This document shows, in pieces, positions 11,234 through 57,635 of a stretch of DNA of 64,000 nt. Origin of the DNA: Adineta vaga (taxonomy: Eukaryota; Animalia; Rotifera); the NCBI GenBank assembly GCA_021613535.1, contig CP075493.1:12276001-12340000 (forward strand), given 5' to 3'. The position numbers were made by a program, and so were the translations under genes. The notes beneath the pieces are model-generated. The model did no database searches and was not told the DNA's origin. It worked only from the letters and a program-made list of their open reading frames with translations. Position 1 is the first letter of the stretch; each line of letters starts with the position of its first letter.

Positions 11234-11824
11234 AACAAATCAAAATGAGACTGACAATTTTCACAATGAATCACAAGATTGATCGCTTATGAATAAAATG
11301 ATATACAGTATATAATAGGACGGATATCAATCGGTCGGTGAAGTGAATAATTAGATTTATCCTTTCACTAAAATCGATGCTTACTGATGTCGCTTGCAAT
11401 TGAATAGTTAATCATTTCATTTAACCGAATGAAAACTATATGGCAAAGATTTAGTCTCATATCTTTTTAGTCATGAAAAAACGGATTGTTTTCGTATTCA
11501 TAGTTAACTGCGAAGATGAAATTCGAAAGTTCTTGTTTATACCTAATGTAACATTCATTCACATCGTTTCTAACGATACGATTTATAAATGTTTTGTAAT
11601 CAAACATGACGATGCAATTTTCGATTCAAATAAAAATATGCTTTGCCATCAAACGACATTCAATCGTCCCTGTCAAATATTTGTTTAAGAATGACAAAGC
11701 AAAAAATAAATGAAATAATGTGCATGTTAGGAATTCTTTTCTTACTATATAAATTTAGTTGTATATGTGAGTGACTTTCATTTCTCTTACTTTAACAATC
11801 TCATAACTACACATACACGTAATC

Positions 11825-12442
11825 ATGGCATCATACAAACTTTACTATTTTAATGCTCGTGGTCGTGCTGAAGTTTCTCGTTTACTTTTTGCTGCTGCTG
11901 GTCAACGATTTGAAGATATTCGTATAGAGCAAAGTACATGGCCAACATTTAAATCACAAACGCCTTTAGGTCAAATGCCTATTCTAGAATTTAATGGGAC
12001 ACAATTAGTTCAATCCTTAACAATTGCACGTTTTCTTGCTAGACAATTTCGATTAGGTGGTAAAGATGGTTTCGAATTAGCTAAAGTCGAAGCGGTCGTT
12101 GATACGGTGAATGATTTAGTATCAGGAATTGGACCACTTCGGCGCGAACCAGATGAAAGAAAAAAACATGATATGTTACAGAAATTCTTTGCAGAAGATT
12201 TATCAAAACATTTACAAAATCTAGAAATTTTAGGTCGGTTATATGGTTATGGTGGTGCATATTTTGTTGGGAATAGTTTGTCATTAGCAGATTTAGCATT
12301 CTATGATGCTAGTCAAACACTACTTGAATTGGATAGAAATTGTTTAAATAACCATCCATGGTTAAAACAAAACCGTCTTGAAGTTGAAAGACATCCAAGA
12401 ATTGCAGAATATCTTAGAAATCGACCTCCTACAGCATTTTAA
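11825..12442 (+). CDS. gst: Glutathione S-transferase, sigma class
   Basis: [43 protein letters not shown] and a C-terminal RPPTAF; 205 aa. Confidence 0.95.
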
Positions 12443-14119: not shown

Positions 14120-15175
14120 TTGATTTTTATTCTTACTTTAAGTACGTATTCTATTCATCTAGAGGATGAAAGTGTTGAAGAACCGTTGCATGAAAATGTG
14201 CGAAAATTGCTTGTTATGGGCTTGGAAGGAAGTGGTAAAACATCATTAATTAACAATTTATGTGGAACATCGTATACTACGGGAACACATCGCTATGGTT
14301 ATAGAATAACTGATAATCAAAGAGGTTCTTTTAAAACAATATCTCCTGCTTGTGAATTTGTTCTCTATGATACGAATGGTTTGAAAATTGATGAACCTGG
14401 TAAATGGCATGAACATCTCAAGAGTACACTTGAAATTAATGGAGTGATTTTTTTTATTGATGGACATGATAAACGATGTAGTTTACATGGTGATTTACCA
14501 CGGTTAATTGAATACTGTCGAAATTTAGAATTACCAATACTCTATCTGTTCAGATCAGACGTTGTCGATTGGTTGGATGAAGAATGTAGTTTGGATAATT
14601 TAGTAAATGTGAAAAAAATCGAAAAGAAGGAGAATGAGAATGATATTGCGTACTACTCTCAAAAAGATAAAAATCGTTTGAAACAAGTTATTACTAATCG
14701 ATTTGCTTCTGCAACAATGACGAAAGCTCTAATTGATCCAGTTCAATTGGCTGTAAAAATACGAGAGATAGAAAAGCGTCATCAACAGGAGATCAAAACA
14801 ATAAAAGATGAACATCAACAGTCAATTAATGAAAAAGATTTATTTTATAATAATCTCGAAAAACTCTATGAAAACGAAAAGAAACATTCAGAATATCTAA
14901 AACAGAATTTAAGTGATGCCCAAAAACTTTATGAAGATTTTAAGAACAAATACGAAAATATATCCACCGCTAAAAGAAAACTACAGCATGAAATAGAAGA
15001 GTTAAAACGAAGAAAACAAAATAGTTTACAAACAGTTAAAATAACAATGAATTATTTACGTACAAATATCAATGAAGTCGCATACCAAACATTCGTGATG
15101 ATGGAAAATTACGTGTTCGAAGCAAAAAACATCAATGCAAGAAACATAAAGCCTGGTTACCTTTTATGGGTCTAG
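14120..15175 (+). CDS. P-loop GTPase-like protein with C-terminal coiled coil (true start probably spliced)
   Basis: G1 motif LLVMGLEGSGKTSLINNL, G3 motif YDTNG, and a long E/K-rich heptad region. Confidence 0.7.
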   Translation: MIFILTLSTYSIHLEDESVEEPLHENVRKLLVMGLEGSGKTSLINNLCGTSYTTGTHRYGYRITDNQRGSFKTISPACEFVLYDTNGLKIDEPGKWHEHLKSTLEINGVIFFIDGHDKRCSLHGDLPRLIEYCRNLELPILYLFRSDVVDWLDEECSLDNLVNVKKIEKKENENDIAYYSQKDKNRLKQVITNRFASATMTKALIDPVQLAVKIREIEKRHQQEIKTIKDEHQQSINEKDLFYNNLEKLYENEKKHSEYLKQNLSDAQKLYEDFKNKYENISTAKRKLQHEIEELKRRKQNSLQTVKITMNYLRTNINEVAYQTFVMMENYVFEAKNINARNIKPGYLLWV

Positions 15176-15325: not shown

Positions 15326-18300
15326 TTAGTCATTGATTGGATTGACTCTTTGAGTTAAGCATAATAAATTTTTAACTATGATTATAGCAAATAATCGACA
15401 AATAATTACTAGACCGCCATAAAGACTAATCAAAGTTGTGATTCCTTCAAGAATATTATTCTTATCGATATATGAATAAGTACATGAGAGTGGTGCACAT
15501 TGATCAAAATACAATTGATAAGATGTATTATTTTGAAATTCTTCAACCATTAATTGATTAACAATCGTTTCAATAGATGTATTCATCGGAAAACGACTTG
15601 TTGGTAATGAAGAACTATTCATAGCTTTGAACATATTGTTTAAATCGATACATTGCTCATCATAGAGACATTCAAGTGATGACTGTAAAAGTGCTTCGAG
15701 TGGATAACAACCCGTAGGCATACGACGAGATGGCGATACACATTTTGCTGATAGTTTACAATTACATGCATTATAAGTGAGTGGTATAGTTGGCAGAATC
15801 AATTCATTCGTTATATTAGATGAAATAGAAATTATCCAATTGGTTGATAATCCACTGAATAACATATTTGCTCCTGTTGTTTCACGAATTAATGAAAGAA
15901 TATTGACAAATAATTTCGGCATGGTGAATTGAAAATCATCAAATTTAGTCTGAATATGATCAATTAATTCTTGTGGTGATAAAAGTTGAGTATTGACAAA
16001 ATCGTGTGGGCACCTAATTGAACAAGTACATTGTTGATAGTTTCTTGTGATAATTGACAAAAAGAAGCAAGTAATTGAAATTGTCCACTAGCTGAATACA
16101 GAAAATCAATGCGAGAATAGACGTACAAAGGATGAATGGTACCATAAATATATGAAATCCATTGGTCAGAAACGAAATCACTTGAACATACTTGATGAAA
16201 ACGTGATGTAATGTTCAAAACTGATTTGTATTTGATTGAAATTTGTGAACAAGAACATTGTAATGAATCATAGGATTGTGCAACCAGATTTTTATACGTT
16301 AATAATGAAGGTTCGTCAATTTTGACGGTTATGACTTGTGGATCAAAGGCAGAAAAAATATAAAGAATATTTAGAATTGCAATAACTAAAATAAAATGTA
16401 TCCGATGAATCATTTGATATTCATTATGACATGTAAATATATGTTTAATTACATTGATTAATGTTAAATAGGAAAAATTATTCATTAATATTTTATCAAT
16501 AAATTGAAGTCCAACCATAAAAATAAGTTTTAATCCCACGGATAATCCACCAAATACACCAACAATCATTGTAAAAATCGAAATGAAACTTGCATGTTGT
16601 TCATACGGAAATGTACATGATGATGGTGCACATTGATCATAATATGAACTGTAAGAAACATTCGATGACCATGTATCAACCATCATATTATTGGCAATAG
16701 TTTCAATTATGTCCTTCGGCGAATTAAGATGTAAATCGAGAGCAGAGAAATTAAATGGTTGTGCTGAAAATACATATTGATCAATTTCTAGCATACAGGT
16801 AAGATTATAAAAACATTCTAATGAAGATGCAAATAGAGCTTCAATTAGAAAACAACCGACATAAAAATTTGGCATTGAATAAGTTTCTACAAATCGATAT
16901 GAATATTGATCATATTCTAAAATGCCCATTGGAACACGACATAATGCACTTATAGCACAATTACAATCAGAAAAGTAACTGGATGTAAGTTTTATTGTTC
17001 TTGAAATAACATCTATCACAGGTAAAATATTGTCAACATTAATCAATCGATTACCTTGATTAGTCGAACGAACTAATTGAATAGTACGTTTAAATGTATT
17101 CACAGTTGTTGATATCCAATCTTGAATAACTGAATTCCATTGAATATCAAATGTTTGTTGAGGAACAACTTGTGAATTGACAAATTGTGTTTGAAGAAAT
17201 AATTGAGGAGCATCATTAATCGTTTGATGAGCTTGTTGACAAAACATTGCCAGTAATTGAAAATGAATAGGTGCATTGATTCGATATTCCGCAAATTTAC
17301 AAAAAGGTGTACATGAACGACTTTGTCGTAAATAGAGAATCCATTGTTCAGAAATTAAATCACTCGAGCATAATTGATGATAATTAGGTTGAATAGTAAG
17401 AAAAGTTGAATAGGACATGGATATTGAATTGCATAGACATGAAAGAGTATATGAATAATCTTGTTGAAGTTGTTGATATTGAAATTCAGTTGGTTGAAAG
17501 ATAGTTTTAGATTGAAGTGTTGTTTTATATAAATTAGATACGGTTAAGAGTCCAATTGAATTGAAAATTAAAAACATATAAAGTCGAGTCGCATAACGTT
17601 GATAACATATTTGTTGATCAGTACTTGGATAATGTTCGAAAAGATTGAGTTCAATCAGTTTTTCTCGAATCAATCCTTTCAAATGATGTAAACGGGTGCA
17701 TACTAATATGAATTATATTTATGCTCAACTAACTATTACAATTATTGTGACTTACTTGAAACGTGTGGTCTTGGAATAGGACTTCGTAACCGTTGAATAA
17801 ATCGAGTTAGACTCGGAATGATCAGTCGAAGTGTTAATATTAAACTACTGAGAATACCGATGAGTTTTGTTAAGATATAAACACTACTATGATGTGAAGT
17901 ATTCATATAAGTACAAGACGATGGAGTACATTCAGAATAATATTTCTCATATGAAATATTTTCAAGCCAATCTTCAATCATGAGATTATCAATCATTGTT
18001 TGTATTGTTGCATTTTGATCAAAATGACTTTGTTCATTGTAAATCATCGCGGTGAATATACGAGTTTCGTTGTTGGAAATGGTAAAATATGAGAGTAGTT
18101 TGTCTACACTTGTTTGATTATAAAAACATTCGAGTGTAGAAATAAGAATAGAAATTACTGGGAGACAACTTGCGGAAATTCCTGGTATATACCAAAAGTC
18201 TGTTGACCAAGAACTATAAATGAAACTCGTTGCAAACTTAGTACAAACATCTACATTACAACGACAGAAAGAACCATCGACTGATGTATAAGTTACTGCA

Positions 18301-19013
18301 CGTATTGTCATTTGGACGATATCGGGAAATATATAAGATACTAGATTGAAATTTGTCTGTAAGCCAGAGACTAATTGATTGTTCATAGTCATTTCATTGA
18401 TTAATCTTAATTGAGTTTTAAATGTATTCGGTGCTGTTAATCGAAATTGAGTAATTATTGAAAGAGTTTGTGAATGTAGAACATTTCTAGATACAATTTC
18501 TGGACTTAATAATGTACTTTGATAGAAAACATCAAGACTCTGTTCAATATTTGCTTTAGATAAACGACAAAAACCAGCAAGGGCTTGAAAGTGAGTACTA
18601 CCATAGTTTCGAAAGTTGTTTTTGATAAAAAATGTAATCGTGTTCGTTTGACTATGGATTGCATTAAACCATCGATCAGTGATAAAATCACTTGAACAAA
18701 CTTGATGAAATATTGTTTGTATTGAAGTAAATTTACCATACGGAATAGAAATATGTGAACATGAACAATGAGTATTCGAAGGAAGATTTTCAAATTGCTG
18801 TATTGTTGGATATTCAATAGTAATTAATGTCTCTTGTTTAGTTATGAATAATAGAAAACCAGTCTCACAAAGTGAAAGGATGAGAACTATAATAAAGACT
18901 CGTGTAGCGATGATATTTGATTTTTCTCGTTGATCATCTTGTTGTTCATTTTCGTTAGAATTATTTTTTTCGAATATGTTAAGAGTAAGAAGATATCTTT
19001 TTAACGAAGACAT
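15326..19013 (-). CDS. Large membrane protein with three tandem TM-Cys-rich ectodomain-TM modules (1 intron, 1 frameshift)
   Basis: Three copies of CxCxxISxxY..HQxCSSD..W and YxxYxxxCxPxSCT, each flanked by hydrophobic helices. Intron at about 17703-17755; frameshift near 16005. Confidence 0.8.
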
Positions 19014-19284: not shown

Positions 19285-19845
19285 TTATCCTGTAACTTCT
19301 ATTTGCTCTTCTTCTGATCTGTACGAATATGTTGGCTGTATTAATGCTAATTCATCGTTAGTAAATCCATACGAATGCATCCATTGCTCTAAATTCTTAT
19401 TTTTAATTTCTTCAATATAGGAATATTCGTTCTTGTTATTAATTTCTTTTGGTAATTGTTCAAAACCAGTTGATGTCAATACTAAATATCCAACTGCACA
19501 ATAAACATTCCGATGATCAATAAAACGTGGATTTCGAGTACCGCTTATATTATGAGTTTTGTCATGTTGGGGAAATTCACCTTGTTTCCAATAATAATTT
19601 AAACGATCTAATGCATCGAGTTTTTTCGAATAATTATTTTCAGGTTGAATTTGATGACGAATGAAGGCTTCAGCATATTCTAAATGTGCTTGTACACGTT
19701 GAATTTCTGAAGATGTTTGCAGAGGAACAGTATCATATTTTTCTTCGAAACTCAGATCAGCGATAATTTTATTCACAGAAAACGAATGACTTGTTAATCC
19801 TGGTAATAATATGAGAAATATCGATACGGCAAAGACGAAGACCAT
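19285..19845 (-). CDS. Secreted protein with a bacterial-type uncharacterised domain
   Basis: Signal peptide followed by RVQAHLEY..E, YWKQGEFP, RNPRFID..CAVGYL and ELALIQPTY; intronless. Confidence 0.7.
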   Translation of the reverse strand: MVFVFAVSIFLILLPGLTSHSFSVNKIIADLSFEEKYDTVPLQTSSEIQRVQAHLEYAEAFIRHQIQPENNYSKKLDALDRLNYYWKQGEFPQHDKTHNISGTRNPRFIDHRNVYCAVGYLVLTSTGFEQLPKEINNKNEYSYIEEIKNKNLEQWMHSYGFTNDELALIQPTYSYRSEEEQIEVTG

Positions 19846-20052: not shown

Positions 20053-21745
20053 TTAATAATATAATTTATTACCAAATGTTTCTTTAACTCCTTCAATTTC
20101 TATCTCATCAAAAAATGAACAATTTCTATTCCATATTTCGACCACAAATCCTCGATCAGGTGTGATATGAAAATGTTTTGGTGCTAATGGATTATAACTT
20201 GGCCATAGACGTAATGGTCTTCCTGTTGTTGCGATATTAATCCAATGTGAAATAATTTCATTTGAAAATGATCGTGTCGATTGATCCCAAGTACAATTGA
20301 ATGAATCTTCGGAATGAAAATCACTAATAGTTCCGAAGACAAATGGAAGTTCAGCTGAATGTCTACAGATTCCTTCTTCAGGAACAATCGGACATTTAGG
20401 ATAACAATTCAAATGATATGAAAATAATTTATTTTGTTCATATTCTGGACCATATTTTGCATAGAAAGCATCAAAGATTCGACGCATATCACAATCAAAT
20501 AATTTATCTGTTGCTATAATATTGAGAATATTACAGCAACGACTAACATTTGCTGTTCGATTTGCTGAACAACTAGCTAAATGATAATATTCGACAATGG
20601 ATGGAATCCATTTAGGATGAACAGATTGACTGATTAATGCTACAGCTAGTGTATAATTCATATCAGGATATTGAAGACATACTGATAGATCATAATCATT
20701 ATTTCCCATAATAAGACTAATATTATTGTATTGCCCGCGTTGAATTGCCAAAGGAGGATAGAATGGAAAAAAATAGTTGTCAATAATTGGTCTTGTATAA
20801 TAATCACCATAGATTTCAAATAGATCTTCAATAGGAGAATTACGTATACATAGAAGAACTTTTTGTTGATCTTCATTTGTACAATTCAATTTTTTAACAA
20901 TAAAATTTGAAGTATTAAGTGCAGCAGTAGTATTATAATAAGATAAATAAGTTCCAGGTGAATCTAAACCTGATTGACTTATTGCCGTTCGATAAAGACC
21001 AGTTGATCCTTTCAATGCACCAAGATCAACGACAGATAATCCACCAGCACTTTGACCAAATAATGAAACATTACTTGAATCACCACCATAATCCCGAATA
21101 TTTGTCTTTATCCAACGTAATGCGGATAACATATCTAAATACATATAATTACCTGCTGTCGGCCATTCCGGATCTTCTTCAATCAATTCGTTTAAAAACA
21201 TATCAGCTAATGCACCTAATCGATAATTGATTGTCACAATAATCACCGGTTGATCTGATGGTGAATGAGCAATCATGTTCGTACCATTATAGATCAATGG
21301 AATACTTTGAGATGAACATCCTATTTTATGAGCACCACCATGAATCCAAACGAATACAGGCAATAAGGAATGATTTGATGGAATCATTGGTTTGTAGATA
21401 TTTAAATAGAGACATTGTTCATTTTGTTCAGGAATATAAGTATTCGTTTTTGGTTGTGGACAACAAGCACCGAAAGATGTCGCTTGAAATGAATTATTTG
21501 GAAAGCGTTCGAATGCAAGATCAATTGGTGGTTTCCATCTGATAACTTTGGCATATTGAATTCTAATGAACAAAGAAACATTTATTCAAATAAGCAAATC
21601 TATGATCATACCCAAGATATTCAATTGAACTTTGAGTTTGTCGTCCATAGATAATACCTTGTCGAGTTCGAAGTCCAATATTTTCAGAATTGATACTTAT
21701 TACACTCAAAAATAGTAGCAAATTTAAAATCCAACACATGGTCAT
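20053..21745 (-). CDS. Secreted type-B carboxylesterase (2 exons)
   Basis: EQCLYLNIY, PVFVWIHGG, INYRLG, nucleophile motif FGQSAG and HSAELPFVFG. Intron 21563-21611 joins LG|IQYA. Confidence 0.9.
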
Positions 21746-22353
21746 CAAATATGTAGTTTTATGGATATGTGTGTCTTATCAAATAGAACCTCAAAATATT
21801 TTATCTGACATCGTTTTTTCTTTCGTTATATTTACATTATTTGTGTCGGTTAACAATGACTCAATAGTAAAGCATCTTTCATTTCATTCCTATATAAGAA
21901 TGCATCGTCATATGCATAACATGATGACATCTTCAATTCAAATCTCTTTGTCATTATTGTTTTAAAATTTACATTCATATATCTAATAGAGAGAAAAAGT
22001 ATAGTTTTGTTAAGAAAAAGAGACATGTGATACAGATATAGATGCGATATTTACACCCATCGCTCTTGTTTCATGATTATTGATTTCTTTTATTACAGGT
22101 AACGTTAAATTATGGAGTATAGTACGTAATAAAAACTCAGTCACCTATAACGAACCAAAGAATGAATAACATCGGTTTAATTATTAGAAACTTATGACAT
22201 TTCCTAATGGAATCTATGAAACGAACATAATCATGTCAAACAAAAAGAATTTTCTATAAACTTTCATATTAAATAAAATTTATCTTTCATTGAAATGATA
22301 TTTTATTCAAAAATCTAAAAAACAACAACAACAACAACAACAATAACAACAAA

Positions 22354-23996: not shown

Positions 23997-24327
23997 CGTA
24001 CGTAAATCGAGATTGATTTGATAGAAATAAATGTGTTCGACGGCACTTTAAATAGAAAAGAAAAGAAAAATCTTTTTTTTTTCTTTTTATATATGCTCGT
24101 TCTTCTACATGTTTTGTTATTATATCTTCGTCGGCGTGCGTTTAACCACATGGTAGTATATATATATATATATATGAAGACTACTTTTCCGTATTAAGTA
24201 GAAACTTGTTTGATCATGTTATAGTTATTTTCTATATAAATCACGTATGACAATATAGTAAAAAAGAGATATAAATTGAATGTGTTAGTTGAGTAAAACT
24301 AAGCATTGTCTATCTTCAACGTCAATA

Positions 24328-27300
24328 ATGTTATTATTATATCTATTCACTTTCTTCGAACTGAGATCAATGACTGTATCTCAATTCAATTTCTATTATA
24401 CACAAAATGATTCCGATCGATATTGTTTGTTATTATTTGACGATAATATGAGAAATCTTCAACAACCTATAGGCGAAACGTCCATTTCTATACATCATAT
24501 TTTACCGTATTGTCTTCGATTAAAAGAAGAAGAAGATTATATCACAGTATTTGGTGACCTACAGAATGTTACTGTACCTAGTTTTACCTTTATTGAATTG
24601 AAAGAGAGAAATATTACGAGTGAAATGTTACTTTCTTGGTCGTCTACCATTGATCTAGCAGAGGAATACGAAATATTTTTAATGAATGAATCATCATCAT
24701 TATTAAATATTAAAACGTTCTACAATTGCACGTCATTTTGGTTTGGACCATTTTGTCGTTTCAAGTTCGATTATAGTACCAGTCAATCATTCTATAATGT
24801 TGTCAGAATCAGTTTTAGGACAAAACGTGTAATAAGTAATAAACTGTCGAAAGTACCATGTTATGTACATTTATCTTGTAAAACATATTTATCATGCTTG
24901 GATTGGCGAGAAATTTGTGATGGAAATAGCGACTGTATGGACGGAGAAGATGAACAGAACTGTTGGCAATTAGAAGTTAACCAATGCACCTATGAAGAAT
25001 ACCGGTGCCATAATGGACAATGTATTCCAATGGAATTTGTTCGTGATGCTATAGGATATTCAGATTGTTTCGATCAAACAGATGAACCAGTAAAATTAAT
25101 TAAACCTGAGTGTTATTTATCACCTAGTTTTTTGTGCGAAAAACGTACGTATCGATCGATCGCCCTCGATTTTTCTTGTACTGATGGTGAATATACGGAT
25201 GGATTGACGACGTGTAACAATGGTTACTCGAGCTTTTTGACAGATGATTTTTGTTCCGAAGCTATGCGTTGTCTTATGGATCTCGGTTATGTGCCAGGTT
25301 CGTTCTGTATTCGTTGTAAACATAGCAATTGTATAAAAAAGAATTGCCCTATTTTATTTGAATTTCGTGCTATTCCTCCTATTTTCGGACACATTCGTCT
25401 ATTGTTTTCGAATACGATATCATGGTATGATACTAATCCTCTTCCTCTTTATTTATGCTATGATGATAAACTATGCGAAAATATTTTTCCAGATATAGAA
25501 TATATCGATAATTTTACTTGTCATCGGTTAAATCTGTCAGAACTGGGAGAAACAAGATCATATATAACTTTTAGAGGTCTAGTATACCTTATTAAAAATC
25601 GATTTCGTAGCTGTTTACTCATACAAAATGAATATCACTACTGTAATTATTCATCAATGTATCAGTGTAAAAATTCAAGAAAGTGTATTGCAAACCAACG
25701 ATTGATGGATGGTTTTCGAGATTGCCGAGAAAATGATGATGAAGAATATAAACAAAGTTGTTTACTTGCCGATGTTCAACACCGTTTTCGATGCTCAGAT
25801 GATGAAAGCAAGTGTTTTTCATCAATAGTCGTTAACGATGGATTGCACAATTGCGAATTTATTGATGATGATGAACATACATCATTAGAACGATACAACT
25901 TGAAACATATTGATTTTTTAAACATTTGCGATGGCAAAACTAATTTATTTCCTATAAAATTTGAAGACCACTATGAAACTGATGAAACAAATTGTGAATA
26001 TTGGCCGTGTAACAATATTTACACACGATGTAATAAAATATGGAATTGTCCTAATGCAATCGATGAAATGTATTGCTTCCATTCTTTAATTTCTACGTTT
26101 GAAAATAGCTGCTTATTCCCCAATATTATACAAAACGAAATTTGTCCTTCAGTCAATCAAACTGATAAACAATACATTCATCAGACGTATTCAAATGATG
26201 GAAATTTTGGGTACAATCACTGTTGGAATGATACGACATATATGCCCTACATTACGTTTTGCGACAGGAGTTCACCATCTTCTGTTTATTGAATGGTAGC
26301 ACTGAACGGTGTACTGATAATCTATATTCACTTTACACCTATCATGTAAATATACGTTGAATATTGGTGAAAAGTCACAATATATCTTCTGTGTTTATCG
26401 TGATCTATACAAATCAGAACCACGGATGTACTTTAAGTTGAGTAATATGTCAAATGATCAATTACAGTTAACAAATCTAAACACTTTCAATCGACAAACG
26501 ATTACAAGAAGAATTCGTTCGATCGATAAAACTCCTATTATTTATTATTCATCGGATGATGCTTGGCGATGTAATCGAGGTATTTCTATACGTATTCAAA
26601 CAGATGTTAATAGAAGTCGTTTATATTGTCTTTGTCCTCCAAGTTATTATGGCGATGAATGTCAATATCAAAATCAACGCGTTAGTATAACTGTTCAAAT
26701 TCGAGTTTCATCAAATTGGAGAAATCTTTACGTGTTTCTTTTAACTTTAATCGATCACGAAAGAAATATTGAATCTTACGATTATATTGAATATTTACCT
26801 ATTCGTGATTGTGATACGAGATATAATACTTACTTACTTTATTCTTCTCGACCAAAAAATTTTTCAAAAACTTATTCCGTTCAAATTACTGCGTATGATC
26901 AAACAAAATTAACGCATCGAACAAGTTGGATTTTTCCGTTACAGTTTAGTTTTCTTCCTGTTTATAGTTTGCCTGTTTTCTTGAAAATGTCTACATTGCT
27001 AATCGAATCTGCAAACAAACAATGTTCACCTTCATGTATTCATGGTCAATGTCTTTCGTACATCAACAATCAAAGTTTAACATACTGTCATTGTGAATCT
27101 AGTTGGTCTGGTATTCAATGTAACGTAAAACATAAATGCAATTGTGCATTAGGCTCGTTGTGCATAAGCGATACGATATGCTTATGTTCATCGGGTCGTT
27201 TTGGTCGTCGATGTTATTTAGTTCAAATGACATGCCAAACTCAACCATGTTTGAATGGTGGACAATGCATTGTAGAAGATGTACGTTATAACGATGCGAA

Positions 27301-28915
27301 TCAAAATCGATCGATATGTATTTGTCTTGAAGGTTATACAGGAGATCGTTGTCAATATCAACAGAACCAAACTGAAATTCAGTTATTATTCGATAACTTG
27401 AAAACTATACCATCGTTTGCGTTCGTTCATCTGATTTTGGTTCGAAAAGATGCTACACCCAAACGAATAACATTAATGAAAAAAATTCGATTTGATGAGT
27501 ATTCAATAAAACTGACAACTTCAATTCCATTTCATATAGCATTTGTACAAATCTTTGTCGACGAGTATTATTTAATTATTGTTCGTGAGAATGTAATTAT
27601 ATCCGAACAAATCTCAACAAAATTCCTTTCCTCTTCTCGATGTCGATCAATTACTGAATTATTTGATGAGAAGTTTTCAAAACAGCATTTAATCAAACGA
27701 ATCAAATATTATCATATTCCATGTCGAGAGATTATCGAATTAAATTGTTTTTATGATGAGGTTCATCTCTGTTTGTGTACTAATGATAGACAAGCAAATT
27801 GTTTCGAATTTGATTATAATAAGACATATGATTGTGATGGGACAAACATTTGTGAACATAGTGGAAAGTGTTTTCTTGATGATGATCATTGTCCAACCTC
27901 ATCGGTTTGTACTTGTCCAAATTGTTTTTTTGGATCGAAATGTCAATATTCAACACAAGGATCAACACTTTCCTTGGATATTATTCTAGGTTATCATATT
28001 CGTCCAAATCTTCTATTTTATCAACAACGAATCATTGTCAAAATTGCGCTTATATTAATGTCATTCATATTTGTTTTTGGTGTAATCAATAGTTTTCTTT
28101 CGTTTCAAACGTTTCGACAAGAACAAGTTCAAAATGTTGGCTGTGGTCTTTATCTCTATACATCATCAATTATATCTATGATGATAATTTTATTCTTAAC
28201 ATTGAAATTTTCCTTTCTATTAATTATACAAATGAATTTCGTTTCGAATCGTACGTTCTATTACATTCAATGTTTATCGATTGACTTTATACTTCGATCT
28301 CTTGTATGTACTACAGATTGGCTCAGTGCATTCGTTGCTTTAGAACGAGCCATAAATGCAATGATGGGAGTTACATTTAATAAAATGAAAAGTAAACAAA
28401 TGGCTAAAAGAATTATATGGTTGATCCTAATTTTCTCTAGTATTTCGTTTATGTATGATCCACTTCATCGTGATTTGAGTACTGATGAAGAAGAAGAACA
28501 TACATGGTGTGTTACGAAATATTCATCAACGATGCGAATAATTGATCGAATTATGAATATTTTTCATTTTTCCATACCGTTTCTAATCAATTTACTTTCT
28601 GCAATAGTGATTATCTTTACTGTCGCTCGTACACGTTCACAATCTCAAAAAACGAAATCATACGAAGAACATTTATGTTCACAAATTCAATATCATAAAC
28701 ATTTACTCATTTCACCATTTCTTCTTATTCTATTAGCTATTCCTCGTTTAATTATATCATTCGTATCTAGCTGCATGCAATCTGCTCGTAATGCATGGTT
28801 TTATCTTTTTGGATATTTTATTTCATTTATTCCATCGATGTTAGCATTTGAAATATTCGTTTTACCATCTGAGATGTATAGAAAAGAATTCAAAAAGTGG
28901 ACTAGCCGTCGATAA
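24328..28915 (+). CDS. LDLa- and EGF-repeat-containing 7TM receptor (frame break at about 26270-26357)
   Basis: LDLa repeats (CDGNSDCMDGEDE etc.), several EGF repeats, and a C-terminal rhodopsin-type 7TM with VALERA. Confidence 0.85.
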
Positions 28916-36525: not shown

Positions 36526-37938
36526 CACACCCTCAAGATTTAGATAAGTGTTGAGAAAAATGATTTCATCATCATTTTTAATCACGAAAAAAAGTTTTAT
36601 TCCAGAGTATCATTAAAACAATCAATGTAAAAGTTGATATAGTTTCATCTTTTTAAGTGGCGAAAAAGTTATGTCTACATGGTGATGAATCATTCTCGAA
36701 CCTGTGGTACACATCGATAATACACTGAACCTGTTGATGGAATTTTCTTTGGATCCGTATAAATGTAGATTGTATCCTTAGCCATAAATTCATGTTTTTC
36801 ATCAAAATTCGATGATAGAAAATCGTCGATGGTACCTTTCGTTGGTACATATGCATAAGATGAATATCGAAGAAGAACATACACTCTATCGATTGTTAAA
36901 TTACGTATAGTAACAATTCCATCCATCTCAATAGGTTGTTCATTATAAGCAGGATGTGTATTTGGTTCATTACTTGCAGATACAGATAAACGTACAGGTA
37001 ATGTGACATGATCTTCATCTAAAATACCTGTAAAAGCAATTCCATAATCAATCTAAATAGTCCTTCAGAAAATCAAACGTTACTAAGAAAGCAAATATTG
37101 TCTTACATCCAGTGGTATACATCCACCTTCACCACAATGTTTTTGACATGTTTTTCTTGTTGCTCCTAAATCTTGTTCATTCATTTTTCGTTCAATTAAT
37201 CTTTCATGATAAAGATTACAGTAAGTCAATACATCAGTAGGATCATAGTTGTTTTCATCTCGAAATCGAATACCAAATGCTGGCATTACATGATCATAAT
37301 CTTTTTGATGAAAATATCGTAAATAAACAACAAACATCACAGGATAACCTTGTATGATAGATTTTTTCATCCAACAGCAATAATCACGAAATTGTGGTTG
37401 AGAGGAATTCTTCCAATCCCATACATTATAAGTAAAACCAAGAATAGATAGAGTATTGTAGGGAGTTCGACAATCATCCATCGATGTTTTTTCTAAAAGA
37501 TATTCTCCTTGATTAATATCACGAACAAGTTTTTGAGAAATCCATGCACCATAGTATAAACCTACAAAAGGAAACATAATAAATTTTTTATGATGGTTGT
37601 TGCCTGAAATACATACCAAATGATTGTATAGTTACTTCACCACAAAAGCCATTGCCATTTTCCCATTGTAATCGAGGAGGAATATCCAGTAGAATTGTAC
37701 GTTGATCGAGCACCTCAGAGTCTATGTCTTTTTCACTTATATGTGTCATAATTTAATCGTTAAATTTGATTGAAATGTTTTCTTCGACGAGCTGTTTTAT
37801 AAGTCATGATTTATAAGTAATGATGAAATTCAATATTGTGCAATTCTGTTTTTTTCCTTTTACGGCAATGATCCTGTCTGGAAGATAACCTAATACATGA
37901 GATAAGGTGTCATAAGACTTTTCATATATACATGACGT
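36526..37938. repeat. Segmental duplication copy 1 (direct repeat of 42734-44146)
   Basis: Near-identical sequence at an offset of about 6208 bp. Confidence 0.95.
36690..37749 (-). CDS. Papain/C39-like putative cysteine hydrolase, copy 1 (3 exons)
   Basis: IPPRLQWENGNGFCGEVTIQ (Q..C), WISQ, GYPV and DYDHVMP (H). Introns at about 37562-37616 and 37052-37106. Confidence 0.65.
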
Positions 37939-42745: not shown

Positions 42746-44146
42746 ATTTAGATAAGTGTTGAGAAAAACGATTTCATCATCATTTTTAATCACGAAAAAA
42801 AGTTTTATTCCAGAGTATCATTAAAACAATCAATGTAAAAGTTGATATAGTTTCATTCTTTTAAGTGACGAAAAAGTTATGTCTATATAGTGATGAATCA
42901 TTCTCGAACCTGTGGTACACATCGATAATACACTGAACCTGTTGATGGAATTTTCTTTGGATCGGTATAAATGTAGATTGTATCCTTAGCCATAAATTCA
43001 TGTTTTTCATCAAAATTCGATGATAGAAAATCGTTGATGGTACCTTTCGTTGGTACATATGCATAAGATGAATATCGAAGAAGAACATACACTCTATCGA
43101 TTGTTAAATTACGTATAGTAACAATTCCATCCATCTCAATAGGTTGTTCATTATAAGCAGGATGTGTATTTGGTTCATTACTTGCAGATACAGATAAACG
43201 TACAGGTAATGTGACATGATCTTCATCTAAAATACCTGTAAAAGCAATTCCATAATCAATCTAAATAGTCCTTCAGAAAATCAAACGTTACTAAGAAAGC
43301 AAATATTGTCTTACATCCAGTGGTATACATCCACCTTCACCACAATGTTTTTGACATGTTTTTCTTGTTGCTCCTAAATCTTGTTCATTCATTTTTCGTT
43401 CAATTAATCTTTCATGATAAAGATTACAGTAAGTCAATACATCAGTAGGATCATAGTTGTTTTCATCTCGAAATCGAATACCAAATGCTGGCATTACATG
43501 ATCATAATCTTTTTGATGAAAATATCGTAAATAAACAACAAACATCACAGGATAACCTTGTATGATAGATTTTTTCATCCAAGAGCAATAGTCACGAAAT
43601 TGTGGTTGGGAGGAATTCTTCCAATCCCATACATTATAAGTAAAACCAAGAATAGATAGAGTGTTGTAGGGAGTTCGACAATCATCAATTGATGTTTTTT
43701 CTAAAGCATATTCTCCTTGATTAATATCACGAACAAGTTTTTGAGAAATCCATGCACCATAGTATAAACCTACAAAAGGAAACATAATAAATTTTTTATG
43801 ATGGTTGTTGCCTGAAATTCATACCAAATGATTGTATAGTTACTTCACCACAAAAGCCATTGCCATTTTCCCATTGTAATCGAGGAGGAATATCAAGTAG
43901 AATTGTACGTTGATCGAGCACCTCGGAGTCTATGTCTTTTTCACTTGTATGTGTCATAATTTAATCGTTAAATTTGATTGAAATGTTTTCTTCGACGAGC
44001 TGTTTTATAAGTCATGATTTATAAGTATTGATGAAATTCAATATTGTGCAATACTGGTTTTTTCTTTTCGTTGCAATGATTCTGTTTGAAAGATAAGCTA
44101 ATACATTAGATAAGGTGTCACGAGACTTTCCATTCATACATAACGT
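42734..44146. repeat. Segmental duplication copy 2
   Basis: Direct repeat of 36526-37938. Confidence 0.95.
42898..43957 (-). CDS. Papain/C39-like putative cysteine hydrolase, copy 2 (3 exons)
   Basis: Same exon structure as copy 1 with a few substitutions (EYALEK, DYCSW, TINDF). Confidence 0.65.
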
Positions 44147-44626: not shown

Positions 44627-46429
44627 TTATTTCGAATACCAAATAACATCATTGTTAGAATTATAAACTTGTAAATATGGAGAAACTGTGTTGAACAAGA
44701 ACTTTGTTCCTGAAGGATTTGTACCTGTTGCCCATACAGCTCCTTGATCACCATAAATAACAATATTTCCATCTCCTTGAAATGAAAGAGAACAACTATT
44801 GTCGCAAGTTTTGCCACTGAGAGAAGCACTCCATAATAGTTTTCCTGTATTAATAGTATCAAGATAGATAGCAAGATTTGCATTGTTCAATAATGTAAGA
44901 TAAATAAAAGTGTTGTTTATTATTTGACGAACGAAACTGCCATTAGTAAGATGAAACGAAGGATAAAAATCATAAGAAGAAGCCCATATAACACTATTGT
45001 TTCCATCAATAAAAGTGAAATAAGCACTTGTATTCGATATACGGATGGAACTATCTCCCAAGATGCCAGTATAAGCAGGCGGCCATAGAGTTAATATTTC
45101 TGCCCGTTTGTACAGTACCAGTTGACCTATATTATTAAACGTCAGTCTGCATTGTTGATTCGTACAGTCTGTACAACAAGTATTCGAGGACCATTTAACA
45201 GAACCATCTGATTGATAAAGAACTAAATTACCATCATTCTGAAGAATAAACGTAGCATTCAATAACTTAATTTGTTGATTGGAATATAAATTTAACTGGT
45301 CTGATTGATAGGTATAAGTACCAGAGAGACCTGGTTCTATACAAATGACATATTGAGCTCTTCCATGAAGAAAATTTGTTTGAAAATTACCATTAGCTCT
45401 CATACTTTTTAAAAAGGCCATCGGTGGTGCATTATTTGGTGTATAACAATTTGAAGTAAAAGCACCACTATATTGCGCAGTATAATTATTATTTATAACA
45501 GTAAAATTATGTGCACCAGAAATAATAATACCATAACCCATATGATCACCCTTGATGGTATTGTTATGAACGACACCATTACGATTGTAATTTATTTTAT
45601 CTCCGCCCCATACAGCAGGCCCAATAGCTATGCCTGTTTTTATAAATGCTGATTGTGCCCAAACAGTATTTTGCATGATTGTAGCACCAGTATAATCTCC
45701 TTCGTAGGGTTCATAATCAACCATATTAATGGCACCGAGAAGTGTACGAGATTTAGCAATGATAGTATTATTTCTAACTGTTGTAAAAGGAGCACCAAAG
45801 ATCACAATTGCACCATCTGTAACATCTGTAATTATATTGTTTGCAACCGAACTTTCAGTGCATGCCATAGATATACCATCTGCATATTGACCATCAGGAT
45901 GACCTGCAGGGCCTATATCATTGTTAGTAATAGTTGCATTTCGACAACCATTCAGTCCACTTTCAGCAATATGTAAACAAGACCATCCTCGAGGTTCATA
46001 TGAATGTACATAATCAACAACTTGATTGTTTGTAGGACCTCCAATTTCAATATTTGCACTTCCTTTTAATAAGCCCAGAACTGGTCTATTACCATTAACT
46101 TGAATGTTTCGGAGTCTCAAACTGGAACATTGTTTGCAATTACCTATAATTGCAGCTGTTTGATTGACACCAGTTACAATAAGAGTTGCACGTGTCGAGT
46201 CTCTCGGATATCCATCTGTTGATAATTCTTGATTATATGCCGTAAAAATAATTGGATTTTTTAGGATGAATATAGAATTAGCACAGAGTGATGCTACAGT
46301 ATTTGGACCTCCGCTAATTAACAAATTATTAATAGTCGTTTCATCACCACTTGAAATGCATGCTGTATGAGCAATTGCAATAGTAAGAAGTAATTCAAGA
46401 AAAAAAACACGAAAAATTAGGTAAATCAT
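44627..46429 (-). CDS. Secreted right-handed beta-helix protein with two C-terminal bulb-type (B-type) lectin domains, intronless
   Basis: Signal peptide, N/I-ladder beta-helix repeats (ITNNDIGPAG, NNIITD, NNTII), and mannose-binding motifs QNDGNLVLY and QGDGNIVIY. Confidence 0.85.
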   Translation of the reverse strand: MIYLIFRVFFLELLLTIAIAHTACISSGDETTINNLLISGGPNTVASLCANSIFILKNPIIFTAYNQELSTDGYPRDSTRATLIVTGVNQTAAIIGNCKQCSSLRLRNIQVNGNRPVLGLLKGSANIEIGGPTNNQVVDYVHSYEPRGWSCLHIAESGLNGCRNATITNNDIGPAGHPDGQYADGISMACTESSVANNIITDVTDGAIVIFGAPFTTVRNNTIIAKSRTLLGAINMVDYEPYEGDYTGATIMQNTVWAQSAFIKTGIAIGPAVWGGDKINYNRNGVVHNNTIKGDHMGYGIIISGAHNFTVINNNYTAQYSGAFTSNCYTPNNAPPMAFLKSMRANGNFQTNFLHGRAQYVICIEPGLSGTYTYQSDQLNLYSNQQIKLLNATFILQNDGNLVLYQSDGSVKWSSNTCCTDCTNQQCRLTFNNIGQLVLYKRAEILTLWPPAYTGILGDSSIRISNTSAYFTFIDGNNSVIWASSYDFYPSFHLTNGSFVRQIINNTFIYLTLLNNANLAIYLDTINTGKLLWSASLSGKTCDNSCSLSFQGDGNIVIYGDQGAVWATGTNPSGTKFLFNTVSPYLQVYNSNNDVIWYSK

Positions 46430-48547
46430 ACTTCGAAAGATGTAAATGTTAGTCTGCCAGGTATGTTATTTATAGCGAGTCGCACGTTTCGAGAGAAAGC
46501 AAAAGGCAAACAAATTAAATATAAGATTATTATACAGTGTTTTCATTCTTATCATGATGTGTAAAAAAAGATTTTACATCCTCTATGTTCTTTTTTTGAT
46601 TTATAAAAAAAAAACTCAAAACATCACCGAATCAGTAATTTAACAAATACGAACAAGTTCAAGCTTATAAACTATTACAAAAATATTAAATTTTAACACA
46701 ATAAAGTTGAGTTCTACATAATTTCCACTACTCCAATAAAATATGTTTTTTTTCGTACAAACCTATATCTCTTCTCTGGTGAACCAACTTTGTGTTTGAA
46801 AATTTAGACTGATACTCGTCTGTTTAATATTAAGCACTTTTGTATTACGAAAAATTCAAAATTATCCAACACTTGCTGGAATTCTCAATCTTATTGGATC
46901 TCTTCTTGATCAAGATAGAATCAACGATCAAGATCTCATTATTACCTGATCAATGCATTCGATGAAATTCATTGTCCTGATGATGCAAACCTTTTGAAAG
47001 GTAAATTCATTATTCATTTTTGATCTATAGTCTTACTCGATTACTATGTTTAGAGTATCGAAATCGTGTAAATCCATCGATACATATCTTATCAGAAACG
47101 GAATCGTTCAAAATCGTGTAAGTTATTAGCAAAGTCGTCCAAGATTTTGATTTCATATTAACTTTTACATAGTTTCTTCTTTACTATTCGTTCTATTATC
47201 TATGATTATAAACGTAGAATTATCCTTTTTCTCTCTTTGGAATCATATAGAATTTCGTCAATTGAAAAATAAGAATCTTAAATTTATAGACACAATAAAA
47301 GAAATCAAAACAAGCCAACATGCGAGTACTGTGAGCTTGAATCAATCTGAAGACAAATTGACAAGAATCGAAAATAAACGTACGCGTTTCAACTTCTCTT
47401 TATCAATACATATCAGAATTGTTCTTCTTATGCATCATACTCGCTCACTCGTTCCTTGAGATTTGAAAATGAATTGTGAATCTGAATTTGACATATACGC
47501 TCTTTCTAAAATAACATGCCAACATAGTTCACAAGTTTTTGTTAAATATAATTGTATTTTGGTGCTAATCTCAACATACTTTTTTACAGGAAATTTCATA
47601 AATAGTAGATTACGATCAATTGCAATCCGTTTACTAAAAACTATTGATTCTGTTTCATATTCAATAAAACTGATAACAACTTTAATGTTGAATGATGATT
47701 TTCGAGAGAAAAGACTGATTTCGGTCAATGCTATAAAACTTACTAACTTCCATTAGAAATCTAATCATCGTAGAATTTTTCATGACAAATCTCATCCCAT
47801 TTTTCTCATTCTTTTGTAAACAAATCAATCGAAATATAGATTATCAGCGTAATAAATCTGTTCTGATTAACTTGAACTAGAAATAAAATCTGAAACTAGT
47901 GTGCTGAAATAATGTTTTACTAAAGTGTAACTATAGCCAAGTGTAGCATTGTTTCTCACTCTTTTTCAATTACATCTAAAATATAAAGGTCGAACTTAAT
48001 TTATAAATACTACGCATTATTTGAAATAAAACATCTGTCGTATTTGTATTCACTCGATAAATCATTATCAATTCAATCTTTCATTTGAATATTCTATGAA
48101 AAAGAACTGAATGGATCGCTCTTTTAAACTGACGATCTTTAAAATATCATTTCTGATAAAGAAATATATCAAAGAATAGTCATAAAAGTAACTTGCCGTT
48201 AATTTTTACTACTAAATTATTGAACTGAATTGAATTTCTCATCAATCTTTCATATGATTAGTAACCTCTCCAATCCTTCTCTCTTCAGCCTGAAGACAAG
48301 CAGACTGAAAAATTAATTTAAATTTACAAATTCAAACTCGTTGTCACCAGAAGATATAGGGGTCGACATAGCACACATGATTTTTTTTGCACGCCTCGTA
48401 AAAGTTCAAAAATATTATTTTATTGATGCTCACGCAATACATAGAACAGTATATACATCTAACAGATCAATAGAAACGTGTTTTTCCATCTGCTAGATGA
48501 ACGCAATTAACAAATCAATAAAAAATACGACAGACAAGCTGTTGCTA

Positions 48548-51109: not shown

Positions 51110-54100
51110 TTATTTTATACCTTTCCATTGAAAAATTTGATTAATTATGAAAAAATAAACAAGAATTCCAATGCAAAAATAAATGATCATTCGTAAATTA
51201 ATCATTGACCAATATCTATTTTGTTTCAACATCAAATAAATTATCAAACTAATCACAAGAATTGATAATTGTTTAATAAATCCTTCACTAAATAAATGTT
51301 CAGTCATGAGAATAATCAAAGTCGACAATGAAATATTTCTCGTTTCTTTTTCATCATCATTGATGGATACATCGTTCCAATGTGTTGATTGAGATAAAAC
51401 ATGAAATCCACTTGCAAATGTTGTCAAATGTCGAGAAAAACATTGTGTTTGATAATGATTTGTTAATGAACCAACAATTAATCCATCAGATTTCCATTCA
51501 TTCATTTCATCAAGATAATAACAACCTGATGTATAAACTCGCATTTCATAATTTGAACTAAAATTATATCGTTCATTTATAAGTGGTAATTTACTTTTCA
51601 ATGATGAATTCAAACATTCAACATCAGAATTTATTTCTCGTAAACCAATTACTAATGATGAATGACCTAAACTTTGTTGATTATTAACAAAATATCGATA
51701 AATACTTTCATTCGTCAAGTCAAAAGAACAAAGAAGTGTCCATCCATCGATTTCATTCAGTGAACTATTTAATCGTGGAATTCCATCAAATTTATAAATA
51801 AATAAATATGAAATATTCACATTCAATGGATGAATCTCGAAATGAACTGAAATTGGAAGTGTTGTTGTGATATTAATATAATGTAAAGAAAAGAAGTGTT
51901 GATAATAATCAGTTGAATTGTTCGATGTCACATTGTATATGATCATTGATGGAATGACAACATTTGGATCTCGTGGAATAATAATTTCAATCGAATGATT
52001 TTCATCCGTTCTAATTCCAATTTCTTGACCATTTTCATCAAGAATTGTTAATGAAACTGATCTTGACAGATTTGTATGAGATTGTGAATTTCCATATGAT
52101 GCTAATGGTTCTATCATTGACTATAAAATAAACTCGAGAGAAATGAATGAATTTGTTCAATGAAAAGTTTACTCGAATTGAAATTGTTTGATTTGTATTG
52201 AATTCTGTTTGAATTGTTGATGGAAGATTGATTTGTGCATTTCCAATTTGTTTATTCGCTAATGATTCAAATGATGTTCTTTCTAATGACATCAACACTT
52301 CTGATGTATTCAAAACTAAACTTTGTTCACGATTCAAATGAACATTCAACGATAATGTCATCAATGAAATCATTTCTTTTGTTTTCGAAACAATTTCATT
52401 GGCTAATTGTTTTTGATAATACACATTTCGATTCTTTTCAATTGTTGACCATGAAAAATCATTTCCATCACCAAATAAATCTGAATAAAACAAAAAGAAA
52501 GATTTGAGAAATGAAAGAAGAGATGATCTTACTTAGATTTGACCATGATGATTCTAAATCAGTATCATAATCTTGAGGAAATGATGTTGCACGAATGAAA
52601 TCAACATCTAACACATTCATTCTTTCTTGTAATGGACCATTCACACCCTTAATTCATCATCATTTATTAGATAAAAGATAATGGAACATCTCTCTTACTG
52701 TGACAAGATTTGTTGTACATTCACCTAATTGACTTGCAATGATTTGTGTATCTTCAGATGATATTTGTGTTGACATCAAATACAAACGTTTACTCAATTC
52801 ATAACATCGATTCAATGCAATTGTCTATGACAAACAGATTCAATCTAATCATATGTGAAAAGAAACAGAGATCTTTTACCAGAGTATTTCTTGTTAATTG
52901 ATTTGTTGCTTTGGTCAATTGAACTAATGCTGATGATTGTAATTTCAGACTATTCGATGTTGTTATGGCGAGATTGGAGATGAATTGTATGAGATATTCT
53001 CGAACTTGTGCATGACAATTCACTTCTTTCTCATATTCATCCAATGCTGACATGTTCAATGCTGTTGTTGATATCTGTGAGAGAGAGAAAGAGAGAAAGA
53101 GAGAAAGAGAGATTAACAAGTAAAATAAACAAACAAAAATGAAGTTACTACTACTTGTGAAGATGAACTTTGTAATGATGAAACTGAAATACTTGTCCAT
53201 GGAATTCCATCTAAATTATCAATAAACACGTGTAAATGTCTCAATCATTATCAAACTTTTACTCGATATCGCTTTATCAATATTTTGTTGATTGAATTGA
53301 TTGAGTTGATTTGAAAATAAACTAATCACTTGACTAACAACATTCTGATTTTGACTTGCAAGTAGTTGAACATAGGGATTGTTGATGATTTCATTTGATG
53401 TATTTTGAATATCATTAATAAACTTGTTCATTTCATTCAAATCTGCTCGAACAGAAATCGATGATGTGAAATTATATTCTGTCAAACAATCAAATTCATC
53501 ACGAATCTTCATTATCAAATGAATTGCATAAGTTGGATCATCGCTACATGGAAATCGAACTTGAAATGTTGATAATGATGAATATGCTATGATTGTTTGT
53601 TTTGATTGATCTATTGTCCAAACTATAAAGAGACAAAGAGGTATACACGTACGTATATCGAATAGTTCAATCATGAACTTACTGTAAAGTGAATAATCTT
53701 TGATTCCATCATTATCAAACCAATTCAAACAGTTCAAATCAAATAAAGTACTTGTTGTACCATTGAGAGGAGAAATCGAACATGAACCATTTGTAGGTGG
53801 TTGATTAATGAGAAAACTTAATGAACTTGAACTTGTTTCTGATTGAAAATGATAAACAACTTCAAATCTCCAAAGTAACCATTGGCGATAGGATGAAAAT
53901 AAGTCATTGGTTGATGTCAAATTTGTTGTGTTCAGTCCAAAAAACCAAATATTTGCATAAATATTTGTTTTATTGAATAAAATCCATTCTGTGACATTTG
54001 ATGATGCATTTCTTTGTCCATAATAGATTCTCCATTGAATATTCTGAACGGTTGAACAATTCTCAATACAAAATGAATACAAAGCAACTTGAGTTGTTGG

Positions 54101-57100: not shown

Positions 57101-57635
57101 ATTCAATGACCATTTATCAACTCGGTTATTTGCATTATAATCACTGACATACATATCATCATTATCTGTAACGAAGATACACATTGGATTAGGCATACTG
57201 CCGTATATTGTTGTTGTTGGATTCACGGTGTTATTCAACCAAATGTGAGTTTGATTATTTACTTGATCAGTAACATAGATTGAGTTGTTCTTATTGATAA
57301 AAAGACCACGAGGGTTGGCACCAACTGTACTATTATTAGCAAAAATAATTGCATTGGGATTCCAAATTGCATATGGATCTAATTTTGGTCGATTGTATGA
57401 CACACCTAAATAGCATATATCTCGTTATGATTGGAAGAACTAAAATACTTTATATCTTTAGCAATAGATATGTATTCTTCATCTCGAACTGTTACGGATG
57501 AATATCACTAAGGACTTTATAGTGTTATATTCATGCCTAAATACTTGTATCATATAATTGCCATCATTAGTTCTTACCTGATGCTTGCGCAACAATCAAA
57601 AAAATTAGCCATAAATAAAAACTGTCCACTGACAT
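51110..57635 (-). CDS. Multi-exon NHL-repeat + Thr-rich + REJ + GPS protein (polycystin-1-like ectodomain), with frameshifts in NHL exons
   Basis: Signal exon MSVDSFYLWLIFLIVAQAS, two NHL propeller units, REJ-like region (NQPPTNGSCSISP, WFDNDGIKDY), and GPS motif CYYLD..W...G..TQCFSRHLTTFASG. Confidence 0.8.

Follow-up and report, generated by a model that had tools for sequence, protein, structure and literature searches.

The window analysed here, a 64,000-nucleotide stretch of the Adineta vaga genome (contig CP075493.1, positions 12,276,001 to 12,340,000), carries on its minus strand, at 15326..19013, a gene whose product repeats one module three times and has six transmembrane segments (TMs). 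The protein is ~1210 amino acids long if read through; in the window's haplotype it is frameshifted. Translation starts at the ATG at 19013. Exon 1 (17756..19013) comprises module 1, i.e. TM1, a 12-cysteine ectodomain and TM2, the order found in each of the modules, which are ~400 amino acids long. It is followed by a 53-nucleotide GT-AG intron in phase 1 (17703..17755), assigned from the sequence and from frame continuity, as its removal keeps the frame between the exons; the same junction is used in the public A. vaga protein P0001. Exon 2 (17702-15326) encodes module 2 (16456..17702) and module 3 (15326..16455), with one frame break near 16003-16008, within module 3. All these features lie on the minus strand. 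An earlier note on this DNA had recognised the three modules; its extents are amended here in that module 1 reaches 17756 and the intron falls exactly at the module 1/2 boundary.

By sequence comparison, the likeness among the three modules is far beyond chance, as the note had claimed for the protein spliced and corrected for one frameshift. Pairwise BLASTP gave 27.6-30.8% identity over 370-417 aligned amino acids (E 1e-40 to 1e-45), with module 2 matching module 1 at 27.6% (E 2e-40) and module 3 matching both others at 30-31%. There are exactly three copies each of the ectodomain motifs HQxCSS, LECxY and Y[YF]..CxPxSC and six of CxC, and the TM2 strings quoted in the note are all present. 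Modules 2 and 3 have all 12 cysteines, and 35 of the 36 family-conserved cysteines are present in the gene as a whole (one is lost). Two TMs had been claimed for every module; five of the six pass a hydropathy cut-off of 1.5, and TM1 of module 2 fails in this copy, its column being a TM across the family. The TM2 segments lie at 17796..17885 in module 1 (a candidate pore helix, with Arg at family column 384), at 16498..16590 in module 2 (GG motif, Lys at column 384) and at 15362..15454 in module 3 (GG motif, Arg at column 384), all on the minus strand. Module 1 is 100% identical to that of P0001, a gene model which crosses the frame break by omitting 38 residues, and full-length identity to intact homologues is 47-53%.

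The frame break and the single-nucleotide polymorphisms (SNPs) were assessed using contigs of four DNA runs (X1, X2, X3 and X5) aligned to the locus. Two nucleotides at 16004, in a dinucleotide run (16003..16008, minus strand), are absent from the contigs of X2 and X3 and present, as in the window, in those of X1 and X5. Because the X2 and X3 contigs lack them and homologues likewise show the shorter spacing at this site, the break is an allelic insertion. The frameshift to be fixed is therefore real and not a mere assembly slip; a pure assembly error is ruled out by its presence in the contigs of two of the four runs. Other contigs contain further indels (+1 at 16678 and +2 at 17080). There are 39 coding SNPs listed (43 further differences exist), 31 nonsynonymous and 8 synonymous, none creating a stop, and the allelic ratio of nonsynonymous to synonymous polymorphism (pN/pS) among those listed is 1.05. 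The frame-breaking indels and this ratio indicate that one allele of the locus is decaying. For this locus alone, the chances are only slightly against a decaying pseudogene without any intact allele, whose function would be carried by paralogues: the window frameshift, the two other indels, the pN/pS ratio, the weak TM1 of module 2 and the lost cysteine all fit it, whereas a mosaic assembly of two haplotypes could put all three indels on one allele and leave the other intact, and no nonsense change occurs among the 39 SNPs. Four runs guessed to be RNA yielded only short pieces, one spanning the unspliced intron, and have no bearing on expression.

The gene belongs to a large, fast-diverging and previously undescribed family of bdelloid rotifers. 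Searches yielded 87 long homologues, 113 of module length and 27 others, with 14 A. vaga gene models among the matches. A profile search returned 4072 clusters at 50% identity, of which 150 were listed; among the matches listed, all that are named are bdelloid (Adineta, Rotaria, Didymodactylos and Philodina). The neighbours of the family in the Atlas are Rotifera clusters without Pfam domains. Pfam gave no informative match for the open reading frames (ORFs) of the window, 100 module sequences and 80 TM2-region segments, and no match for the family was found in NCBIfam or among PDB sequences. Searches with one or two conserved peptide patterns gave 19 matches in GTDB genomes and 101 in viral contigs, none confirmed as a relative. 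The literature searched (mainly open-access articles, without supplements) yielded neither a description of the family nor one of a naturally concatenated trimeric channel. A Philodina roseola member with three modules and near-identical scaffold segments, P0209, is deposited as a ‘telomere-associated protein’; this label was followed up and set aside, as the passages of PMC5408684 consulted do not describe the family.

Three modules per chain are a strict, family-wide ceiling. Among 209 proteins of at least 735 amino acids, three modules are present in 172 and two in 37, with a maximum of 2.97 module-equivalents, and proteins of at least 1400 amino acids still have three (28 of 28). Of the whole set of 392 proteins, 194 have three modules, 62 two and 136 one, and none exceeds three. 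As the profile search has no length limit and ranks on summed score, four-module proteins would top its list, and none did. At the DNA level, more than three modules were found in none of 75 loci, and exactly three in every one of the 24 (16 of them distinct) with at least 1 kb of flank on both sides; these were hand-picked, the other 51 ending at contig edges, and longer introns could conceal a module beyond the 1-kb flank. The loci range from intronless to 6-9 exons, and intron positions are frequently at module boundaries (L006, L013, L023, L055 and others), which explains why many database entries are fragmentary; locus L013 has an intronless ORF of 1176 amino acids with three modules.

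The earlier note had expected one or three modules per homologue. This is borne out only in half: the upper limit holds, but no certain single-module gene was found and a few two-module models resist explanation as fragments. A genuine one-module form was considered for the ‘single-module homologues’ and rejected: 54 of 99 end in a splice-donor read-through pattern, versus 22 of 100 three-module proteins, and splice sites lie at module edges in the loci inspected. Most entries with one or two modules appear to be exon fragments, e.g. P0076 (two modules) and P0370 (one module), which map to three-module loci.

The history of the modules was examined in a FastTree phylogeny. It comprised 231 modules, taken from the 77 three-module proteins that were left of 99 after redundancy was removed at 60% identity. 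The modules do not split into three global clades. In seven of the 77 genes the three modules form a clade of their own (support 0.98-1.0), as do the modules of one six-protein subfamily (support 0.97). The modules of one gene being mutually closest in these seven genes, the triplet was re-made or homogenised repeatedly. Within-gene identity at columns 281-380 of the same genes is 0.64-0.80, compared with 0.31-0.59 between genes; this excess extends across the scaffold and is absent at columns 121-140 and 221-240, the hypervariable segments of the ectodomain. Recurrent triplication, or intragenic conversion sparing the two variable segments, would fit this pattern. A module-copying process that has never given four modules suggests a structural limit of three.

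AlphaFold modelling of an intact homologue (P0021) gave, for the whole chain, a predicted local distance difference test (pLDDT) score of 87 and a predicted template modelling score (pTM) of 0.79; the model of module 1 of the window gene alone has a pLDDT of 91.6 with the same pTM. The whole-chain scores suggest that the modules are packed together, and the protein is very probably a single-chain pseudo-trimer. It is quite improbable that the modules are instead three tandem domains without a symmetric unit, whether beads on a string or a six-TM, transporter-like fold, in which the number three would be an accident of one ancient triplication. Two-module models do exist, and threefold (C3) symmetry is an indirect reading; such an arrangement is nevertheless hard to reconcile with the lack of three global module clades, with a triplet that arose anew or was homogenised on at least seven occasions without ever exceeding three, and with the whole-chain pTM.

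The module fold is modelled with confidence and is yet unmatched. The modelled ectodomain is built round two helices of 32 and 36 residues. Covariation analysis placed six Cys pairs, together comprising all 12 conserved cysteines, within the top 70 pairs, and six disulfides per module are predicted, two of which would tie the post-TM1 strand to the pre-TM2 strand. The earlier note had proposed a structural comparison with ASIC1, P2X, PAC and Erv41/46: only the TM hairpin aligns, and no match to the ectodomain of any of them was among those listed. PAC and ASIC5 appear in the structure-match lists; P2X and Erv41/46 are not among the matches listed. Profiles of DEG/ENaC/ASIC, PAC/TMEM206, P2X and Erv41/46 gave no match in the 100 modules or the 80 TM2-region segments, and neither modules nor TM2 regions matched PDB sequences of DEG/ENaC/ASIC or P2X.

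If the family were a far-diverged branch of the DEG/ENaC-PAC superfamily (or of P2X or Erv41/46) that triplicated in bdelloids, it would share the topology seen here, an antiparallel hairpin of the type TM1-strand...strand-TM2; the presence of PAC and ASIC5 in the structure lists and a PAC-like Gly-to-Lys spacing in TM2 point the same way. PAC and ENaC/ASIC have in common a 12-stranded beta core (PMC7904269). No match to this core was seen for the two-helix ectodomain, and whole modules and the TM2 region have no Pfam or PDB sequence match, so we regard such an origin as unlikely.

The interpretation of the family as channels draws on TM2, in which small and polar residues form a pore-like face. 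Small residues occupy columns 374, 377 and 378 in 95-97% of modules, with G at 377 in 81%, and column 384 is R/K in 64%. One face of the helix combines T370/T371, G/S374, G377, G378, R/K384 and P388; the hydrophobic moment is 0.9-1.05 at ~100 degrees (p 0.0002-0.004). TM1, on the other hand, is uniformly hydrophobic and has no polar face (moment 0.31, p 0.41). Among 77 proteins, column 384 is basic in three modules in 21, in two in 31, in one in 18 and in none in 7, i.e. 52 have at least two basic residues; the window gene has R, K and R. In PAC, the TM2 helices cross at G313, K320 is the presumed anion filter and TM1 is the outer helix (PMC7904269). The pair G377 and R/K384 reproduces the +7 spacing of G313 and K320, as a pattern and not as homology, and by this analogy it suggests a TM2-lined, possibly anion-favouring pore.

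Based on the model and on these patterns, we propose that the three homologous TM1-ectodomain-TM2 modules would pack into one pseudo-threefold assembly, in which the three TM2 helices may line a central pore and cross at the G/S-x-x-G-G face. An anion-favouring ring, the counterpart of that made by K320 in PAC, would arise from the basic residue that lies 7 positions below the first Gly; TM1 would be turned to the lipid, and the variable segments would make up an asymmetric, three-sided surface for ligand binding. With the modules fused, a single gene would set the heteromeric stoichiometry, and paralogues could therefore diversify without mis-assembly. We give even odds to the view that this single-chain pseudo-trimer is a gated ion channel, likely gated from the extracellular side.

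Some family members carry additional domains. FG-GAP or NHL repeats are present in 23 of the 28 proteins of at least 1400 amino acids. In most cases they follow a seventh TM, found in frame at 5 of the 17 loci examined. In P0242 (residues ~1385-2244) the seventh TM is followed by several tandem extracellular repeats of ~120 amino acids without a Pfam match at E 1e-5, and P0032 has a TM and an FG-GAP propeller at its N-terminus instead. In one subfamily, the FG-GAP or NHL propeller tethered by TM7 might serve as an accessory domain, for ligand or adhesion, that is built into the chain.

The main rival to the channel interpretation is a non-conducting single-chain pseudo-trimer, i.e. a diversified receptor of the surface or secretory pathway (serving recognition, adhesion, immunity or Erv41/46-like cargo sorting), whose TM2 glycines would merely pack helices. 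It is supported by the very large and fast-diverging family, the hypervariable tips, the FG-GAP/NHL fusions, and allele decay with birth-and-death at the window locus. In addition, FG-GAP and NHL proteins are named among families that have expanded in A. vaga and have presumed roles in defence and signalling (PMC3846280), though the three-module family is not described in the passages of that paper on expanded families. We nevertheless consider such a receptor rather unlikely: the family proteins have no conserved cytoplasmic signalling domain, their inter-module linkers have a median of 61-63 amino acids (from P388 to the next R32) and their tails are short, and the continuous polar stripe of TM2 with its basic residue exceeds what packing needs.

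Several points weigh against the pseudo-trimeric channel itself. C3 symmetry and the central pore would rest on the pTM value and on the amphipathic TM2, both indirect. Among the structure matches listed, the ectodomain has none to ENaC, P2X or PAC, only the TM hairpin being alignable. The two-module models P0270, P0276 and P0278, as well as P0195/P0196 (421 amino acids), lack DNA context and are not accounted for as fragments. Finally, the window locus may be decaying, its allelic pN/pS being about 1.

The family has no sequence match to ENaC, P2X or PAC and is not a demonstrated member of any known family, but by analogy it likely works like these channels. DEG/ENaC/ASIC channels are trimeric, often heteromeric and lineage-expanded, with a Gly-rich TM2, and the rotifer module likewise has two TMs flanking a large Cys-rich ectodomain. 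With the proton-activated chloride channel PAC/TMEM206 it shares a TM2 pattern, a Gly crossing together with a basic filter residue close to the cytoplasmic end. However, three separate chains with beta-rich ectodomains make up the PAC homotrimer, whereas the rotifer protein joins three unequal modules in one chain; its 12-Cys ectodomain is rich in helices, and no match to PAC was detected in sequence or ectodomain fold. P2X receptors are trimers of 2TM subunits with a disulfide-rich ectodomain and a TM2-lined pore; they differ in that the rotifer family has no sequence match to them and none among the structure matches listed. The cargo receptors Erv41/Erv46 (ERGIC2/3) also have two TMs, and a luminal domain, but neither the modules nor the 80 TM2-region segments matched them and they are absent from the fold lists; a resemblance of TM2 to the Gly-Gly TM2 of Erv46 and the Gly-rich TM2 of ENaC was not confirmed by these segments. 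The nearest named clusters by language-model features, and the sole lead outside the rotifers, are ciliate transmembrane proteins of ~400 amino acids, i.e. of one-module length (Atlas score 0.76-0.77, a score below 0.9 being a lead only). PF27811 Y80K_N, found on 43-45% of members in the ciliate clusters, is absent from the Pfam scans of the rotifer family.

The remainder of the window contains several genes of other types. Just upstream of the three-module gene, and co-oriented with it, is an intronless ORF of ~186 amino acids with a hydrophobic N-terminus (19285-19845, minus strand) and no significant Pfam or NCBIfam match; it resembles bacterial hypothetical proteins and is a possible foreign gene. 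A gene with a small GTPase-like domain and a coiled coil (14120-15175, plus strand) is convergent with the 3' end of the three-module gene. Genes for a glutathione S-transferase (11807-12442, plus strand) and a carboxylesterase (20053-21775, minus strand) were also found. By eye, a large receptor-like gene (24289-28915, plus strand) contains LDL-receptor-A-like and EGF-like repeats and ends in several TMs, and NHL-repeat and REJ/GPS-like (polycystin-like) exons lie at 51110-57424 (minus strand). Two near-identical ORFs ~6 kb apart (37083-37631 and 43291-43818, minus strand), without an NCBIfam match, point to a recent local duplication. A 612-amino-acid ORF (44627-46465, minus strand), possibly horizontally acquired, is similar in its C-terminal part to lectin-like bacteriocin/bulb-lectin repeats (NF033557, E 4e-15, below the cut-off) and beta-helix-like by eye in its N-terminal part. 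Several short 7TM-like ORFs occur elsewhere in the window.

Oligomeric channels whose subunits are all fused in a single pseudo-symmetric chain are known from Nav/Cav channels (four units) and two-pore channels (two units). Both are four-fold P-loop channels, Nav/Cav being natural single-chain versions, in contrast to the three-fold 2TM modules of the rotifer chain; no three-fold 2TM counterpart turned up in the literature searched, and we know of no natural single-chain channel of that kind. The rotifer protein is likely a ready-assembled three-part ion channel or sensor. More tentatively, and with the odds somewhat against it, the family might form an additional structural class among trimeric 2TM ion channels, the first to occur naturally as a single chain, and consist of bdelloid-specific, probably anion-favouring chemo- or stress-sensors. 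Each gene would then encode a complete heterotrimer, its scaffold kept uniform by intragenic conversion while the three variable tips diverge, and some members would carry a tethered beta-propeller as an accessory subunit.

If true, the existence of a naturally concatenated trimer whose ectodomain fold is unmatched would mean an independent arrival at the ENaC/P2X/PAC design, and it would offer a ready template for asymmetric trimeric sensors. Even a non-conducting protein with a strict three-module rule, regenerated several times, and a confidently modelled, unmatched fold would be a good structural target. For the bdelloids, the channel interpretation would, if correct, provide a very large family that lacks annotation with a role open to testing.
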